Assembly: GCA_000004985.1 (NCBI GenBank)
Contig: GG738906.1
Strand: one strand, 5' to 3'
DNA length: 64,000 bases
From: Naegleria gruberi
Lineage: Eukaryota
Positions 5,915 through 30,518 of the stretch are shown here, piece after piece (positions within the stretch are counted from its first letter, which is position 1; each line of letters begins with the position of its first letter). The notes beneath the pieces are model-generated. The model was not told the origin of the DNA, ran no database searches, and saw only the letters and a program-made list of their open reading frames with translations. A program made the translations under genes and the position numbers.

Positions 5915-7929
5915 TTATTTCTTCATTAGGAAATAAGAACATGGTTTAACTGAGCCAAACCAAGCATCTCCAAATCTACAGGTAGCATCGGCGTGATTAG
6001 CTTCAGTAATATAGTGTTGAGAAAGGTGGCTTGAGCTGAATTGGGATGAATTACCAATCATACATGAACTGATACCAACCAACCCGTCATTCGGCTCTCC
6101 AAAGTTGACCATATTACTCAAAAATCCTAAGGCCGGAGAATAATAAGAATTCAAGCCAGTACTACTTGTTCCACACATTTGACCTTTGATGTAGGGCTGA
6201 GCAATAGATTCCAACTCTGAAATTCCCTCAAATGTAGTTTGTAATGTTTCATAGGTTGGATAGACTTTAGTTGACTTGTCAAGACAATATCCAGCTTTTG
6301 AAGCAACAAATTTAGCAACTGATGGTGTAATAATTGACACCTTATTTTCACAAACTTCCTTTAACACGCTTACTGCCTTAGTTCCCTTCATTGGACCCAT
6401 CAAATTGTACCAAGATACAGTTTCTTTATCTATTTTACATAGATTATTCTTTAAAGCACCTGCAATTATTAAATTACCCATTGAATGAGCAAAAACAATT
6501 ACATTTCTAACAGTATTATCAGTTGCATTGAGTTGATTGGCATATTTAGGAATGTGTTTCAATAACATGAAATCACAAAAACTTTGTTGTAGCTCCATAT
6601 TATCCCATCCTCTATTCTTTGTCTCTTCACGAATGAACCATCTTTCCGAACACTGAGGTGTGTAATCGGCAACTGGTCCCCAATAGAGCTCATATTCTTC
6701 TTTAAGAGGAGGTCCTAAGTAGTTTGAATATGTAAATGAGACATTGGAAATTGACATATCTACATACCTTTTCTCTCCTCTAATTCTCCACAACCATGTA
6801 CGAAGAGGCAAATCTTTTTCTCTTCTGATTGTTCCACTTGTTGTTGACACTTGTCATTATTTCTAAGATATGGAACCTTACAGGCAACAGAATTGAAAAA
6901 GTATGCCTTGGCTGGTGAAATGAAACTCTTTAGTGAAATAACAGCCCTTGCCTTCTCTTTTGGAAACAGATCTTTCAGAACTCTGCTGTTTGATACTTGT
7001 TGTTCTTTGTTAACAAGTGAAAGTTCTTCCTGAATTGTTTTTGAAGTTGCAAATAATTGTTCAAAAGTAGGTTCAACATTTGTTTGATTTACATAATTAT
7101 TTCCTCCCCTCATCTTTACATTCTGGTTAGTGAGTTGCTCTACAGAGGTGATTTGAATAGTAAATTCCTGTCCTATAATGTATCTTAAATGAAGAAGATT
7201 TGAAACCATCTTTTCGACCGTTATTGTATGTGGATCTTTCTTTAAAACACAAAATATGTAATGCTGATCTTCAAAGTAAACGACATGCCTACTCAACAAA
7301 CTACTAGGACACAACCTATCAACAGCCTCATCAAAAATAGGAACGCTCTCAGGAATGAAATGTGAATATGCAATATTTGACATCATTTCATCATGTAAGG
7401 CAGTGAAGAAGTTGTGAAATTGGAAAGACTGAGTTGATGTAATAATATCTTCCTCGCTTTCATTGTGAAAATGTTGAGTGAACGCCAATTTCTCTGAATC
7501 ATAATAAATACTCTTTTTGAGGAGACTTGAAGTTGAAACAAGTCTTAATCTAGTGTTTTTCTTTTGCTTGCTATCATAGCTCAAAACAGCTCTCCCTCTA
7601 AAGAGTGGAAGTTGATTGTGGTTAGTTTGATAGGTAATGATTCTAGATCTGGCATGTAATTTAAAGTCTACCAATAAATTTGAAATGCTAAAATTCTCTG
7701 GGAATTTTAACCATCCTTTTGTTTTCAATAAGGAGTCATTTAGTGATGATGGTGTTCCACTATTACTTATTCCGTTGGTAGAGAGAGAAAAATGTAATAT
7801 TGTAAGAAGAAGTAAGTAAAATCCTCCCCTTGAAAAGCCCCAACTGCAAACCATTGATGTGGAACTTTTTCTTTTGAAAAAGAAACGCTTGCCATTCAGA
7901 GTTGTTATATTAAGTGAATGTTCAAACAA
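5915..7929 (-). CDS. Putative serine esterase/lipase of the DUF676 (FAM135/ROG1-like) type with a long N-terminal extension. Exons 6768..7929 and 5915..6714, with a 53-nt intron 6715..6767 (GTATGT…CTTAG)
   Basis: The ORF-track entries 6760..7929 and 5915..6850 overlap in different frames. A GTATGT donor after ERKG and an AG acceptor restore …ICLFVHGCGELEERKG|PPLKEEYELYWGP…. The lipase nucleophile elbow is VIVFAHSMGNLIIAGAL, and NDGLVGISS follows. A hydrophobic signal-like segment (GFYLLLLTILHFSLSTNG) lies near the N-terminus; the start is either M at 7929 or M at about 7854. Confidence 0.6.
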
Positions 7930-24992: not shown

Positions 24993-26438
24993 ATGAGACC
25001 AAAAAGCTATAATCCTCTCGATCCTATCATTCAAACACAACCTGATGCCGGAAGAGAAAATCTTCAATTGAAGGAAATTTTTGTTCGTGGAGTGGAAGCA
25101 ACAAGCGAATCTAAAATTACAGCTGCTTTCCAAGAAGCTAAAAAAGCTACAACTTTGAACGAATTGAACGAAGCTATTAGTATTGGTCTTGAACGTGTTG
25201 GAAAATTGGATGTTTTAAATAATGTTAATGTGATCCTTGATGCTGATGATAGTAAAAATGTTGCTCTTGTTTTGGACTGTAAGGAAAAACAATCAACTCG
25301 TCTTTCTGCTGGTACAACTGTTAATGACAAGGGTCAAGTTAAAGGAGAAATCTCCTTCGGATATAGAAATCTTTTAGGACAAGCTGATAGATGGGATGTT
25401 GATGCTAATATTGATAAGACTGGTTTGACACTTGTAGGACGTACTTTCCTTCCACAAAGCTTTAATAATGATGGTGCTCTCTATGTTAGTGGATTTTTAA
25501 ATGGAGGTAGAGTTTTAACAAATCTCTTACAAGAAAAGTCAAATGGTGTTTCTGTCAGAGCTGAAATTAATGATAGACATTCAATTTCCTATGATTTTGA
25601 AATGAGAAGAAATGAAGATGTTGGTTCCATGTTTAAGAAGGCCTCATCTTCTGGATCTTTCTCTAGATTCTTCTCTAGATTCTATAATGCCAAGACTCAA
25701 GATTCTGAGCCAGTTCTTGATAAGGATGATTCTGTTGTAAAGAGTCAAGTTTGGACTGAAGTTAAGGAACAAAGTGTTAAATCTTCCTTGTCTCATACTT
25801 ATCGTTTTGATACTAGAAACAGCTCATTTGCTCCATCTAGTGGCGCATTTTTCAAATTAGTTCATAGATTAGCAGGATTGGGAGGTGATGTCAAACACTA
25901 CTCTGTTGATATGAATGGTGAAGTGTTTGTTCCTCTCATTTCAGATTCTTTAGTTGCTGCTTTAAAGCTTAATGTTGGTACAATTATACCATTGGACAGA
26001 CAAAATGATACATTCATTTCATTGAATGATAGATTTATCGAAAAGGTACGTGGTTTCCCAGCTGTGGGTACTGTTCATCCACGTTCTGAAGAAGTTTATG
26101 GAGGTAATATTAAGGCTGTAGCCACTGGTAGACTTGTATTCCCATTCCCAGTGTCGTTCATTCATCAATTACTTGGATTACACTGTCAAGCATTTTGTGA
26201 CATTGGCAATGTTTCAAATATTAATGATTACAGTGAAAATGGAGTTCAACAATTTAGAGAAAAATTCTGTAAGGGACTTCATACCAGTTATGGCTTTGGT
26301 CTTGCCATGATGTTAAGCTTTGGTAGAATTGAATTTAATTTTGCTAAGCCATCAACCTTATTCAATGATCAAACAAATCTTCCACCAACTCTTAATAGTT
26401 TCAAACAATTTTCAATTCACTACGTATTTAATGAATAA
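24993..26438 (+). CDS. Omp85/D15-family beta-barrel protein (mitochondrial SAM50/Tob55-like) with an N-terminal POTRA-like region
   Basis: POTRA-like N-terminus (QLKEIFVRGVEATSESKITAAFQEAKK…VGKLDVLNNVNVILD). The C-terminal barrel has alternating-hydrophobic strands (…HTSYGFGLAMMLSFGRIEFNFAKP…QFSIHYVFNE). Family call is by pattern and length (481 aa). Confidence 0.55.
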   Translation: MRPKSYNPLDPIIQTQPDAGRENLQLKEIFVRGVEATSESKITAAFQEAKKATTLNELNEAISIGLERVGKLDVLNNVNVILDADDSKNVALVLDCKEKQSTRLSAGTTVNDKGQVKGEISFGYRNLLGQADRWDVDANIDKTGLTLVGRTFLPQSFNNDGALYVSGFLNGGRVLTNLLQEKSNGVSVRAEINDRHSISYDFEMRRNEDVGSMFKKASSSGSFSRFFSRFYNAKTQDSEPVLDKDDSVVKSQVWTEVKEQSVKSSLSHTYRFDTRNSSFAPSSGAFFKLVHRLAGLGGDVKHYSVDMNGEVFVPLISDSLVAALKLNVGTIIPLDRQNDTFISLNDRFIEKVRGFPAVGTVHPRSEEVYGGNIKAVATGRLVFPFPVSFIHQLLGLHCQAFCDIGNVSNINDYSENGVQQFREKFCKGLHTSYGFGLAMMLSFGRIEFNFAKPSTLFNDQTNLPPTLNSFKQFSIHYVFNE

Positions 26439-26512
26439 TTTTAAAAAAGTAAATGGTTATATTTATTATTGTAAATTTATTCTCTCTATTTTGTTACAAT
26501 ATTTTAAAAAAA

Positions 26513-27728
26513 ATGAAAAGATTTATCATCAAGTTGGGAAAAGAAGGAAATGCATCAACCAAATCCGAAGGAATTTATCTATCACACATTTCCGATTTAC
26601 ACACCTGGCAACCTGAAAAGTTTGAATATCCTATCACAATAGCAAATCTAATGAAAAACAACAAATTAAAAGATTTAAAACAAATTCAAGGATTTTTAAA
26701 TGTAAAATACAATAGAGGGCCAAATTTGTATCAAGTACAGGTGTTACAAGAAACATTGCAAAAGATTTCAACATCAATCGTCACTCAACAAAATCATCAC
26801 TTGCTTGTCAGTGGGGACATTACAAACATTTCTCATTTGGAGGAATTCAAACTGGCAAAAGAAATACTTGTGGACAAATTTAAACAATTAATTGAATTAG
26901 AAAATGAAGAGGATTTATTTAAATATTGTACTCTAGTACCAGGTAAATTATCAAATATTTATAATTTAAAAGCATAATTCAGGAAATCATGATACATACA
27001 CACCATCCAGTGTTTCAGATAATTATTTTGGAAATTTCTTCAAAAATACATTGGGTCAACATTACTATCCCGAGCTATTAGAGAATAATTACTTTTTAAA
27101 ATCAAAAAATTCACAACTCACACAAGAAATGTCAAATCGATTCGTTTCCTCTCTTTATGATTTATTTCCTAATGTAAAGCTTTTACATAACACAGATGGA
27201 ACTAAGGTTTTAATAATTTCCTTATTGTCATGTGTACCAACCAAACCATTTGTTGCAGCTGGAAATATTAAAGAACAAGCACTTGTGAATGCCTCAATTT
27301 TAATCGAGAATATGAAACAGACAATGAAAGAGGAAGGTATTGATGCAGATGCACTCTTCAAGGTTGTACTCATGCATCATCCACCAATTGAACGAGCCAA
27401 AAATTCATTTAGAGAGAAACTGGATGGTCTAGATACGGCATCCAAAAAGAGAGTTCAAGATTTTTGCGAGAGGGAACGAATCGATTTGCTACTTCATGGA
27501 CATACTCATATTCCATTCAGAGGGACCATAGGAGATTCCTATAAGACACTCATAGTTGATAATGGATCTTCCACATATGTCAACATGGAAAAGCCAAACA
27601 AAATGGCCAGATTTAATACCTATCATATTAAGGGTACTCGTCTTCAAACAATAGAACAACATGTTTGGGATCCAATTTCTCAATCATTTAATGAAAGTAC
27701 AATCCTAAATACCTCCTCCGTCAATTAA
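26513..27728 (+). CDS. Calcineurin-like metallophosphoesterase. Exons 26513..26942 and 26983..27728 (intron GTAAAT…AATTCAG)
   Basis: Metallophosphatase motifs SHISDLH, SGDITN, LVPG|GNHD (restored by the splice), VLMHHPP and GHTHIPF. The ORF track alternatively starts at 26453. The stop at 27726..27728 overlaps the serine acetyltransferase CDS on the opposite strand. Confidence 0.7.
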
Positions 27729-29232
27729 ATCAATTTGGCCAGTGCTCTCGAATAAAACTCTGAAACATTCTTCATCATTATCAACGCCAGCAGTAATTTC
27801 TTCTGTATAGGTTTCTTGCTTAGTTTGTTGAGTGGTAGTGGCCTTTTTCTTTTTTCTGAGCTTGTTGAAAGTAGGTTTTGTCTGTTCTTCATCATCACTT
27901 GAATCTATGCCAATTAATTTAAGTTTAGATCTCAAATATTTGAGTTCTTGTTCCAATCTCTTCTCTCTAATGTAAAGAGCACGAATAGCTTGAGCATCAA
28001 TATCATCATATTGATAGACTGTAGAGGAGTTGTTACCTTGCTGTTGTGGTTTTTTAGATAAAGAATTTAAAGCCATTGTAATAATAGAGGAAGGAGAAAG
28101 AACAGACTCATCATTAACACTTTCTGAATTAGGTGGCACAGTTGTATCAACCACCAATTTTTTAGGTTTTTCAGATGATTGGTTATTATTAACAAGTTTC
28201 ACAATATTGTTGTCAATTAGTTTTGTGCCATTATCAGCAATAGCTTCAGAGGAGGCTCCAGTGTTGGTATCAGCATAACCTGCAGTTGAACTCTTCTTAT
28301 CCTTGATGCATCTTGCAGGAATACCAACAAGGGTGCAATCACTTGGGGCATCCTTAACAACTACTGAGCCAGCTCCAATTTTAACATTTGATCCAATAAT
28401 TATATTTCCCAACACTTTTGATCCAGCTCCAACAAGTACATTATCCCCAAGAGTAGGGTGTCGTTTGCCAGTTTCCTTACCAGTACCTCCAAGTGTCACT
28501 AAATACAGAATATTATAGAAATCATGATGAATATCACATACCTCCTTGATAGAGAGTACAATAATTTCCAAGAATTGCTGTTTCTCCAATTACAACTCCA
28601 CAACCATGATCAATGAAAAATCCCTTACCAATTCTTGCACCTGGATGAATTTCAATACCAGTCCAAGATCTTGAAATAATACACATCAATTTGGCTACAA
28701 ATCTAAGAATTTTACAAGCCAAAAGCAGAAAATTACTATTCGAATTTTGAGGGTCAATAATATAGTAGAGTAAATGAGCTATTCTATAAGTGAGTATTGC
28801 CCATAATCCAGGATAGAGTATTAATTCAAGATAATTATCAAATGCAGGATCATTATCAATAATCACAGAAACGTCAGATTTGAGTTGAGACCATATAGGT
28901 TCGGAACAAACACAAACTGATTCAGTATGTTCCTCAATGGTATGTGGTTTTTGTTTTGTTGTACTGAGCTTTGAAAGAGAGTGTAACAATTGTTCTCCTT
29001 CCAAAGCTATAACTGATGGTTTTTCAGTAGGTTGATTAACAATGGGATGACTATTCTTTGAAAACGATTCGTCTTCGGAAGAATTTCCAACAGATCCCAA
29101 CACAACTAAATCAGCATATGAAGCTTTTATCTTGTTTAAAGGAGAAGAAGATGATGAACCCGAATGATGATGGAGATGCTTGGAAGAGGAGTTATCATCA
29201 GGAACAACAACTTTGTTTAGAGTGGTGCTCAT
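27705..29232 (-). CDS. cysE: Serine O-acetyltransferase (CysE-type, hexapeptide left-handed beta-helix) with a long C-terminal extension. Exons 28542..29232 and 27705..28498 (43-nt intron 28499..28541)
   Basis: The joined sequence is …IEIHPGARIGKGFFIDHGCGVVIGETAILGNYCTLYQG|VTLGGTGKETGKRHPTLGDNVLVGAGSKVLGNIIIGSNVKIGAGSVVVKDAPSDCTLVGIPARCI, the canonical SAT signature. It is followed by about 190 aa of N/S/K-rich, coiled-coil-like tail. The N-terminus is S/H-rich. Confidence 0.8.
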
Positions 29233-29762
29233 TGTGAGGTCTTTTTTTTGATTTTAGTGATGGATGCATTAACTCAAAAGGCTATGAATAAACACTTCAT
29301 TTCCATGGAACTTGAGAAGTGATTTTTCATTCCAGATTTTTTAATTTCCGTAAATCAAAACACAAATTTGCATTACAAAAAGCTTTAAAACTGATAATTT
29401 GACTCTAATTCAAAATGGGAATGGGACCAATGTAAGGCAGCATCTATTAGTTTTTCCCAACTCTATTGAGAGAATGCTTGAAATACTATTCTTCAATTCT
29501 TCCCAAAGATGACTACTGATGAGAAGAAAATTTACAATATGGTGCTTTTTAATAATTTCAAAGAACCATTGAGTTGCTAGAATAAGGCTTTTTCTGATTT
29601 ATTAATAAATTCGAGATAAAAAGTTATTGTACATTTTCAAGCGCCAACCATAACGATAAAAAATACCTCGATCCATCATCACTAAGGTTGTTTGAGAAAA
29701 GTTTAGCGCGCTATCAGACAACAGAAACTATTTCATACTACAAATATATATTTTCTAGGACA

Positions 29763-30518
29763 ATGGGATCAGGATTATCAAATAACCGAGCTAAAAACTC
29801 AACAGATGAACCTAAAAATCCACCAAAGAAATCATCCACTGATACAAAAGATACTAAAGCTGTAGAACAAGCAGACCAAGTTAAACGATCATCAACAGAA
29901 CCGACTAAGAATGAAACAAAACCGGAAAAGAAACCAGAAAAAAAGAAAGCATACGTTCCAGAATTTGTTTTCCACTCCGATAAGGGTAAGATTATTTTGA
30001 ACAATTCTTTTTACTAACAGTTGTATTAGATCTTTTATATGGTGATGTAGCTCTTCCATGGCAGGAATCTTACGCACTTGGATTTCATATAATAGACGAA
30101 CAACATAAAATGCTTGTAAAATTGATTAATGAACTTGCTGAGGCAGTTAGAGATGGGCATATGAGATATGAAATTGGGAGTGTGTTTGACAACTTGGTTG
30201 AGTACACTGACTTCCACTTTAAGAAGGAAGAAGAATTGATGGTAAAATATCAATACACAGAAGATGAAGAAGCTGCTCACAAGGAAAAGCATGAACTTTT
30301 TATTAAAAAAGTCTTTGACCTTAGAACAGATTTCATTAACATGACAGTGAACAATATTGGCCAAGGTATGTATTCTTGAATCAAATATTTATGGAGCAAT
30401 TTAATTCCACTTGTTAGATCTTCTTGATTTCTTAACAGATTGGTTATTGACACACATTTGTCAAACTGACAAGAAGTTATGCGATTTCCTTATTAAAAGG
30501 AATATTGTTGAAGAGTAA
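29763..30518 (+). CDS. Hemerythrin-like (HHE cation-binding) protein with a predicted N-myristoylation site. Exons 29763..29985, 30030..30365, 30418..30518
   Basis: The product starts MGSGLSNNRAK… (M-G-x-x-x-S). The hemerythrin core across the splices is …LPWQESYALGFHIIDEQHKMLVKLINELAEAV…EYTDFHFKKEEELM…EDEEAAHKEKHELFIKK…|DLLDFLTDWLLTHICQTDKKLCDFLIKRN. Introns are GTAAGA…TATTAG and GTATGT…TTGTTAG, both phase 1. Confidence 0.75.

Follow-up and report, generated by a model that had tools for sequence, protein, structure and literature searches.

The Naegleria gruberi contig GG738906.1 (assembly GCA_000004985.1), of which a stretch of 64,000 nucleotides, hereafter the window, was analyzed, carries a gene for a serine O-acetyltransferase (SAT) immediately next to a gene for a hemerythrin. 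This arrangement raises the question of whether the two genes form a sulfur/oxygen metabolism pair, as had been put forward in a preliminary description of the sequence, or whether they are neighbors with separate roles. The evidence presented below makes it probable that they are two independent, intron-bearing resident genes, one specifying a cyanobacterial-type SAT with a tail that putatively docks to the cysteine synthase CysK, the other specifying a bacteriohemerythrin with a predicted N-myristoylation, and that their adjacency does not represent a module.

The SAT gene (minus strand) and the hemerythrin gene (plus strand) are arranged head to head with 530 bp between them, positions 27705 and 30518 being parts of their respective stop codons. 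Gene models and domain matches bear out both identities at these positions, as well as the presence of GT-AG introns in each gene. The SAT splice model contains a single such intron of 43 nt and yields a product of 494 aa, while the hemerythrin splice model contains two (44 and 52 nt) and yields a product of 219 aa that starts with MGSGLSNN. An exact look-up matched the SAT model at every residue to XP_002671359.1 (EFC38615.1, locus tag NAEGRDRAFT_81554), and UniProt entry D2VX44 is named serine O-acetyltransferase. The host-like composition and resident nuclear status proposed earlier were also substantiated, by the introns and by a GC content at third codon positions (GC3) of 0.22 for the SAT and 0.28 for the hemerythrin, compared to 0.205-0.30 for twelve other long open reading frames (ORFs) of the window, which is AT-rich throughout (30-36% GC). 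The features of the locus are as follows.

27705..28498, minus strand: SAT exon 2 (splice model), codons 231-494 and stop, encoding the remaining beta-helix and the C-terminal tail of ~200 aa
27708..27722, minus strand: SAT C-terminal D-G-G-G-I, putative docking peptide for the active site of CysK (O-acetylserine sulfhydrylase)
27915..28004, minus strand: amphipathic helix of the SAT tail, aa 396-425, DIDAQAIRALYIREKRLEQELKYLRSKLK, conserved
28302..28887, minus strand: SAT catalytic core, aa 116-296, intron included; invariant E194, D208 and H209; TIGR01172 alignment 118-293
28499..28541, minus strand: SAT intron, 43 nt, GT..AG, within codon 231 (LYQG/VTLGG)
28542..29232, minus strand: SAT exon 1, encoding the disordered N-terminal extension (aa 1 to ~110), the alpha-helical SATase subdomain and the start of the beta-helix
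29233..29762, no strand: divergent intergenic spacer common to both genes, 530 bp, 30.6% GC
29763..29985, plus strand: hemerythrin exon 1, encoding the MGSGLSN consensus (29763-29783) followed by a Lys/Ser/Thr-rich disordered linker up to the conserved PEFVFHSDK
29986..30029, plus strand: hemerythrin intron 1, 44 nt, GT..AG, with a TACTAAC branch site
30030..30365, plus strand: hemerythrin exon 2, encoding helices 1-3 with ligands H100, H137, E141, H158 and H162
30366..30417, plus strand: hemerythrin intron 2, 52 nt, GT..AG
30418..30518, plus strand: hemerythrin exon 3, encoding helix 4 with ligands H199 and D204, and the stop

Family and catalytic core of the SAT

The SAT product matches the Pfam Hexapep family (50.4 bits, cut-off 27), solved SAT structures in the Protein Data Bank (PDB) at up to 3e-40, and, among NCBIfam models, scores highest with TIGR01172 (cysE) at 201.6 bits. 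It furthermore passes NF041874, the model of EpsC-type SATs, with 194.3 bits against a cut-off of 150. On the cysE model its heterolobosean orthologues score 205-222 bits and their cyanobacterial sisters 249-252 bits. The product contains the motifs GIEIHPGA and FIDHG, which align with the DIHP and LDH motifs of solved SATs, where the reference catalytic acid-His pair (Asp143/His158 in Escherichia coli) lies in the corresponding (D/E)IHP and DH motifs. Residues E194, H196, D208 and H209 are invariant in an alignment with heterolobosean and cyanobacterial SATs. Homology and the conserved Glu/Asp-His residues indicate that this enzyme would catalyze the first committed step in the synthesis of cysteine, in which serine and acetyl-CoA yield O-acetylserine. 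An AlphaFold2 (AF2) model predicts beta strands at residues 206-294, with pLDDT (predicted local distance difference test) values of 76-91 across much of the core, and disorder in residues 1-72.

The SAT fits the description of the truncated, or cyanobacterial, type of CysE, since its SATase N-terminal domain is missing the first ~75 residues: the Pfam SATase_N profile is matched at its positions 43-96 only (18 bits, cut-off 21), and long-type SATs from the PDB align only from their residue ~80 onwards. With cyanobacterial CysE proteins (TIGR01172; EC 2.3.1.30) it shares the short SATase helical subdomain, the left-handed beta-helix core with the Glu/Asp-His residues, and, beyond the core, the post-helix motif LPD.EAQ.IRAL..R...LEQ, a variable linker and a terminal (F/L)LDG(A/S/G)GI. 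It differs from them by a disordered N-terminal extension of ~110 aa, an insert of ~14 aa in the helical subdomain, a spliceosomal intron and a tail that is ~200 aa long, theirs measuring ~105-109 aa.

Within the N-terminal extensions of Naegleria and Willaertia, the segment EGEQLL.SLSKLST.KQKPH (28966-29028 of the window, SAT aa 69-89) is conserved; neither Acrasis nor cyanobacteria have it, and a helix at 75-89 is predicted there with low confidence. The intron position varies with the species, being LYQG/V in N. gruberi and DHGSG/VVIGE in N. fowleri, while the SAT of an uncultured Naegleria-like lineage (loci L007/L008) has no intron in the core and shows a break in the tail instead. These differences between Naegleria species indicate that the introns are young, i.e., that they were recently gained or lost.

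The SAT's C-terminal tail

The tail, described at first as an unusual, K/S/N-rich coiled coil of ~190 aa, is indeed ~200 aa long (201 aa past the beta-helix; K 10%, S 10%, T 9%, N 7%), but a helix is predicted for only ~30 aa of it (397-425), so that the term coiled coil fits a small part. Nor is the tail unusual, as cyanobacterial SATs have a homologous C-terminal extension. The helix motif D.(E/D)A..IR.L, present in N. gruberi as DIDAQAIRALYIREKRLEQE and with the consensus DIDAQAIRALY.R..RLEQE, was found shortly behind the beta-helix in 102 of the best 120 matches to the SAT. A C-terminal Ile is present in 89 of these matches, and 80 of them end in [DN]G.GI, typically as EFLDGAGI. The N. gruberi protein ends in IDLIDGGGI, a terminus which is kept in Naegleria, Willaertia and Acrasis. 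Residues D396, I402, R403, L405, R408, G491 and I494 are invariant across the aligned heterolobosean and cyanobacterial SATs. Since helix and terminus are common to cyanobacterial SATs, the Naegleria tail is not a new invention, and the matching cyanobacterial tails rule out that it is a eukaryote-specific coiled-coil addition.

What has changed is the length of the tail. Past the beta-helix, cyanobacterial tails measure 105-109 aa and that of Acrasis 94 aa; N. gruberi has 201 aa and Willaertia 216 aa, while N. lovaniensis reaches 304 aa and N. fowleri 322 aa. Naegleria and Willaertia have thus inflated an ancestral cyanobacterial-type tail (~twofold in N. gruberi) by low-complexity inserts while keeping two functional-looking elements, i.e., the amphipathic helix and, behind a flexible linker, the terminal L-x-D-G-x-G-I. 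The AF2 model predicts a helix at 397-425 (pLDDT 69-86), a short helix at 471-481 and disorder in the remainder of the tail.

It has previously been described that the C-terminal Ile of SAT is an essential anchor which inserts into the active site of CysK in the cysteine synthase complex (PMC9547175, PMC3388911), and that 'truncated' CysE isoforms possess an elongated C-terminal helix while retaining the terminal Ile (PMC13040420). The Naegleria SAT exhibits both features of the truncated isoforms, namely a predicted helix after the beta-helix and the retained Ile. In light of this literature, the tail is best read as a long tether that would carry a CysK-docking peptide. Furthermore, the D-G-x-G-I terminus and the ECF.VLFES segment that precedes it are strictly kept in Naegleria and Willaertia amid a tail that varies freely in sequence and length, a pattern that would be difficult to account for if the terminus bound no partner. 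Most likely, the terminal Ile would insert its free carboxylate into the active site of a CysK whose gene lies elsewhere in the genome, such that the cysteine synthase complex would be formed via a long flexible tether.

The putative complex can be compared to that of CysE and CysK in E. coli, Haemophilus influenzae and plants, in which the C-terminal Ile likewise follows Gly and acidic residues; E. coli CysE ends in ...GDGI. The long-type SATs of these systems are hexameric, possess a full N-terminal domain and carry the docking peptide only ~20-30 aa from the core, whereas the Naegleria SAT belongs to the short type, for which a trimer is predicted (PMC13040420), with its putative docking peptide at the end of a mostly disordered tether of ~200 aa. 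A further protist enzyme, the SAT of Leishmania major, shares a Gly-rich terminus with that of Naegleria, a comparison which concerns the terminus only (PMC3388911).

The hemerythrin domain

The hemerythrin domain spans residues ~83-213 and matches Pfam Hemerythrin (PF01814) at 8.9e-16 (59 bits, cut-off 25.3). The bacterial models NF033749 (bacteriohemerythrin; 122.6 bits, cut-off 84) and TIGR02481 (114 bits, cut-off 51.75) were both passed, while the metazoan-type model TIGR00058 was not (55.6 bits, cut-off 131.85). Sequence matches to characterized proteins follow the same order: McHr of M. capsulatus at 1e-15, the hemerythrin domain of DcrH (DcrH-Hr) of D. vulgaris at 2e-14 and myohemerythrin at 1e-6. 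All seven diiron ligands, aligned to those of McHr, are present (H100, H137, E141, H158, H162, H199 and D204); across 30 sequences six are invariant and H158 is conserved in at least 90%. The AF2 model predicts a four-helix bundle (94-116, 120-147, 152-178 and 184-213, pLDDT >90) preceded by ~60 residues without secondary structure (pLDDT ~55), and a Foldseek search returned DcrH-Hr with a template modelling (TM) score of 0.90 and a root-mean-square deviation of 1.8 A. The protein would accordingly comprise an O2/NO-binding diiron four-helix bundle behind a disordered Lys/Ser/Thr-rich linker of ~75 aa.

McHr (PDB 4XPX) and the DcrH domain (PDB 2AVK) share the four-helix bundle and the H-HxxxE-HxxxH-HxxxxD ligand pattern with the Naegleria protein, at 31-36% identity and a TM-score of 0.86-0.90 normalized to the target. 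The Naegleria gene differs in being nuclear with two introns and in encoding a disordered extension of ~75-150 aa with a myristoylation consensus, and its product is without a methyl-accepting or other signaling domain. It is also distinct from the Nfa1-type hemerythrins (Nfa1, A0A6A5BXL4) of the same genus, with which it shares the fold and presumably the O2/NO chemistry: these are single-domain proteins of ~13-15 kDa that cluster with metazoan hemerythrins (PMC2556348), whereas the present protein has an N-terminal extension and fits the bacterial models. A 2016 survey had already recorded both 'long' and single-domain hemerythrins in N. gruberi (PMC4919030).

A third group of relatives are transmembrane-anchored bacteriohemerythrins of ~189 aa, e.g., from Ca. 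Thiodiazotropha (P0012, P0015, P0017, P0022 and P0025). At 37-41% identity, they share the C-terminal D(K/R)KLCDFL (DKKLCDFL) with the Naegleria protein and, like the one predicted for it, have a membrane tether. Their anchor consists of two hydrophobic N-terminal helices rather than a lipid, and a sister relationship to Naegleria is not supported. They nevertheless show that membrane-tethered hemerythrins exist in bacteria, and thereby provide a precedent.

Regarding gene structure, intron 2 is present in N. lovaniensis and in N. fowleri-like assemblies (locus L004) and absent in L008, while the read-through ORFs of L004 and L007/L008 diverge right after HSDK, indicating that the intron 1 position is apparently common there.

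Evolutionary origin of the two genes

An ancient horizontal gene transfer (HGT) had been suggested for both genes. The bacterial affinity on which this suggestion was based stands for both proteins, while nesting inside a prokaryotic clade, as a transfer would predict, was not clearly recovered in neighbor-joining trees. Among the best 120 matches to the SAT, the closest are those of Willaertia magna, N. fowleri, N. lovaniensis and Acrasis kona, followed by many cyanobacterial SATs, which are the best named matches outside Heterolobosea (56-62% identity over the core, 204-215 bits). Other SATs are more distant (solved proteobacterial proteins 141 bits, soybean 129, Entamoeba 121). In a SAT tree (165 core columns, 100 bootstraps, sequences selected by similarity), long-type CysE is set apart at 100% bootstrap from a group of eukaryotic and cyanobacterial SATs, in which the eukaryotes form a weakly supported clade (bootstrap 56) that is sister to the cyanobacteria and not nested within them. 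In the hemerythrin tree, built likewise from similarity-selected sequences drawn from 40 word-limited matches, the Naegleria clade (100%) is placed among bacteria and archaea with poorly resolved deep branches. All named matches outside Naegleria in that set are prokaryotic, and none is from Willaertia or Acrasis.

Vertical eukaryotic inheritance of both genes, rather than HGT, would accommodate several of these findings, i.e., the occurrence of SAT across Heterolobosea (Naegleria, Willaertia, Acrasis and related contigs) as one clade sister to cyanobacteria, the similar ending of the Leishmania SAT, ...EGDGSGI (PMC3388911), and the introns and host composition of both genes. It has to contend, however, with the exclusively cyanobacterial identity of the named non-heterolobosean SATs among the best 120 matches, from which plant and Entamoeba SATs are far removed, and with euglenozoan SATs, whose best matches are various bacteria and not Naegleria (Table S10 of PMC7052976), which speaks against simple descent from a common discoban ancestor. 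For the hemerythrin, it is opposed by the solely prokaryotic named matches outside Naegleria and by a subtype other than that of the metazoan-like Nfa1 paralogues. Vertical descent is consequently judged to be unlikely, though it retains appreciable merit, and a bacterial origin of both genes is plausible from sequence similarity. As SAT is present across Heterolobosea, any transfer of this gene would be older than that radiation, while the detection of the hemerythrin in Naegleria only suggests a later acquisition or strong divergence.

The N-terminal extension of the hemerythrin

The start of the hemerythrin agrees with a myristoylation consensus, as proposed earlier: GSGLSN fits PROSITE pattern PS00008 (G-{EDRKHPFYW}-x(2)-[STAGCN]-{P}), and the consensus is conserved in all four Naegleria orthologues examined. 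The others begin with MGSALSVGRK (N. lovaniensis), MGSGLSVGRR (N. fowleri-like, L004) and MGSALGVPKK (L007/L008). Four lineages thus keep an MGS-x-L-[SG] start with a basic stretch rich in Ser/Thr behind it, while the rest of the extension (75-150 aa) cannot be aligned up to the conserved PEFVFHSDK that closes it at the intron 1 boundary. In a HMMER scan of 1.84 billion representative sequences, the 74-aa extension matched only a single read-through ORF of 88 aa, identical over the 74 residues. At the site of the TAA in the window's TACTAAC branch site, this ORF (P0281), encoded on a public contig of 1.2 kb, reads Leu, which looks like a strain polymorphism within intron 1.

The retention of Met-Gly-Ser-x-Leu in an otherwise diverging extension supports N-myristoylation, and N-myristoylation with lipid anchoring is the most likely prediction from these sequences: the Met-Gly start and the basic patch would direct co-translational attachment of the lipid and association with a membrane. 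In the literature searched, no paper was found that links a hemerythrin to N-myristoylation.

The alternative is a soluble cytosolic hemerythrin that acts as an O2/NO buffer or antioxidant, in which the Met-Gly is unused or unlipidated and the extension is a mere disordered spacer. The characterized Nfa1-like hemerythrins of Naegleria are indeed small, soluble monomers that bind O2 and NO (PMC11964265), and the basic patch of the N. gruberi protein is weak: counted by eye, its first 35 residues have a net charge of ~+2. The exact 219-aa model, moreover, is absent from public protein sets, and no transcript evidence for the start was found; in an exact look-up of four alternative models, only an 89-aa read-through ORF on a 1.2-kb contig was matched. 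Conversely, no in-frame ATG lies upstream of the Met-Gly codon, which is the first to follow an in-frame stop, and Gly2, Ser3, Leu5 and a small residue 6 are kept in four lineages in which the next 60-140 residues have diverged beyond detection. Together with the transmembrane anchors of the bacterial relatives at ~40% identity, this renders a soluble protein rather improbable, and predicted lipid anchoring is preferred.

Genomic partners of the SAT and the hemerythrin

In Acrasis kona, a 327-aa cysteine synthase with the motifs SVKDR, TSGNTG and GTGGT is encoded 103 bp upstream of the SAT gene in divergent orientation. The same head-to-head arrangement of CysK and SAT was found on three eukaryotic metagenome contigs representing two SAT subclades, the distance being 81-125 bp when Acrasis is included. 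The four pairs are located as follows.

L009:6914-8825, L010:4892-6867, L011:1599-3573 and L012:701-2674: CysK-SAT divergent pairs (Acrasis kona and three metagenome contigs)

The recurrent genomic partner of this SAT in other heteroloboseans is therefore CysK and not hemerythrin. CysK and SAT thus make up a two-gene pair for cysteine synthesis that is conserved in a eukaryote, Naegleria having the hemerythrin in the position of CysK, and these head-to-head pairs reinforce the link between SAT and CysK. Separately, P0054 and P0289 both lie on a contig of 6877 bp, which suggests a further CysK-SAT pair.

The SAT-hemerythrin arrangement, in turn, is of limited distribution. In N. lovaniensis, SAT (minus strand) and hemerythrin (plus strand) occur at two loci in the gene order MFS-SAT-hemerythrin, and the uncultured lineage L007/L008 has the order hemerythrin/SAT/Metallophos, as in the N. 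gruberi window. In the N. fowleri-like assemblies (ERZ2098899), SAT and hemerythrin are on separate contigs with at least 6 kb of unrelated genes in the partner's place, and in Willaertia SAT is present and no hemerythrin was found within 8 kb of it. The spacer of N. gruberi showed no detectable sequence conservation when compared to the orthologous spacers of N. lovaniensis or L007/L008. Because of the split in N. fowleri-like genomes, the missing hemerythrin next to the Willaertia SAT and the unconserved spacer, it is concluded that the adjacency reflects synteny within part of the genus Naegleria rather than a metabolic module, and the metabolism pair of the preliminary description was not upheld, CysK being the neighbor elsewhere.

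The two N. lovaniensis loci (L001/L002; PYSW02000032.1 and PYSW02000045.1; C9374_008278 and C9374_010823) have the same gene coordinates and different flanking gene calls, so the doubled locus may have arisen by segmental duplication or represent a haplotig of the assembly. In the N. fowleri-like contigs, the order is MFS, a 160-aa ORF and then the hemerythrin (L004:5949-8463), in place of the MFS-SAT-hemerythrin order of N. lovaniensis, while the SAT (L006:6249-8585) is now found by SNF2-helicase fragments and looks to have been relocated recently.

A co-regulated unit, in which a shared bidirectional promoter would couple an O2/NO/redox-sensing hemerythrin to the supply of cysteine, i.e., thiol, would be compatible with part of this picture. 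The head-to-head arrangement with a spacer of 530-620 bp is kept in N. gruberi, in both N. lovaniensis copies and in L007/L008, it persists despite a differing gene beyond SAT (Metallophos or MFS), and the same position in related heteroloboseans is filled by the true pathway partner, CysK. Set against this are the separated N. fowleri-like genes, the Willaertia SAT and the spacer, as well as the frequency of head-to-head neighbors in compact genomes. We know of no precedent for a link between hemerythrin and cysE, which also counts against such a unit, and co-regulation is accordingly considered improbable, in favor of independent genes.

Several observations weigh against the interpretation favored here, in addition to the above-mentioned basis of the hemerythrin start. 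The SAT score of 201.6 bits falls just short of the curated cysE cut-off of 210.65. No CysK is present in the 64-kb window or beside SAT in any readable Naegleria or Willaertia locus, and no named Naegleria CysK is found among the best 120 relatives of the Acrasis CysK, where Pharyngomonas is represented; nor was a Naegleria CysK mentioned in the literature and supplements searched. In addition, the Gly-rich terminus may be a poor docking peptide, since the similar Leishmania terminus EGDGSGI is a weak inhibitor of cysteine synthase, the half-maximal inhibitory concentration of the heptapeptide being 270 uM and that of GSGI 1.5 mM (PMC3388911).

Such observations could be accommodated by an orphan SAT whose CysK was lost and which has another role, for example in providing O-acetylserine as a signal or precursor, or in acting on another substrate in the manner of EpsC. 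The ancestral CysK neighbor is gone from the Naegleria locus, the EpsC cut-off is passed where that of cysE is narrowly missed, and N-terminal extensions and a helix-domain insert were added in Naegleria and Willaertia. The missing Naegleria CysK is weak evidence, however, because only the best 120 matches were covered, cysE is still the top-scoring model and is the one that the cyanobacterial sisters pass, and D-G-x-G-I and ECF.VLFES would have been kept strictly amid a variable tail. An orphan role is thus regarded as quite improbable, and a SAT that docks to a CysK encoded elsewhere is preferred. Bacterial contamination or mis-assembly, which only the bacterial type of the domains would suggest, is rejected given the three spliceosomal GT-AG introns, a GC3 as in neighboring genes, the eukaryotic flanking genes (Omp85/Sam50 and a protein kinase) and the orthologous loci in other Naegleria genomes.

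Implications

Both genes are ordinary members of known families, the SAT having been annotated and the long hemerythrin class having been noted in N. gruberi before, and current understanding is not overturned. New in the present analysis are the reinterpretation of the tail, the recognition of CysK as the recurrent head-to-head partner of SAT, and the conserved myristoylation signal. The seemingly odd tail can be explained as an elongated form of a regulatory tail that is otherwise conserved, which leads to the testable prediction of a long-tether complex. The cysteine pathway of Naegleria would start with a cyanobacterial-type SAT that is lacking in humans, and the N. fowleri orthologue has the same core and C-terminus, which lends it some relevance as a drug-target idea.

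As far as literature searches show, a myristoylation signal on a bacterial-type hemerythrin is undescribed. It would add a membrane-associated member to a family whose N. fowleri representatives are under study as virulence factors and scavengers of NO (PMC11964265), and a lipid-anchored Naegleria hemerythrin, if true, would be the eukaryotic counterpart of the transmembrane-anchored bacteriohemerythrins. A far-reaching scenario, to which we attach little credence, is that the lipid-anchored hemerythrin, with its myristoyl group, basic patch and phosphorylatable linker, took the promoter-sharing place of CysK, such that O2/NO/redox state and cysteine synthesis would be coupled at the level of transcription, while the SAT would reach CysK by means of its tether of ~200-320 aa.

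Neighboring genes

Convergent to the SAT gene lies a Metallophos-like ORF (26453..27728, plus strand), which has one or more introns or frame changes near 26977-27051. Its last 24 bp (27705-27728) fall within the 3' end of the sequence that encodes the SAT, creating a tail-to-tail overlap of the two coding sequences. A tblastn search with a threshold of 1e-3 returned no match for this gene in Acrasis, and the idea that it is an ancient neighbor of SAT common to both organisms was rejected.

An Omp85/Sam50-family gene (24993-26438, plus strand; Pfam 1.1e-33) is situated ~1.3 kb from the N. gruberi SAT. In the N. fowleri-like contig, too, an Omp85 gene (L004:1-195) lies less than 8 kb away from the hemerythrin, suggesting a rearranged regional synteny. 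No tRNAs or Rfam families were found in the window. A DUF676 esterase, previously assigned to 5915..7929 on the minus strand and grouped with the SAT and hemerythrin as an HGT candidate, was not recovered, as neither ORF of that region has a Pfam match at E <= 1e-3; the downstream one (minus strand) does contain AHSMG, a lipase-like nucleophile-elbow motif.

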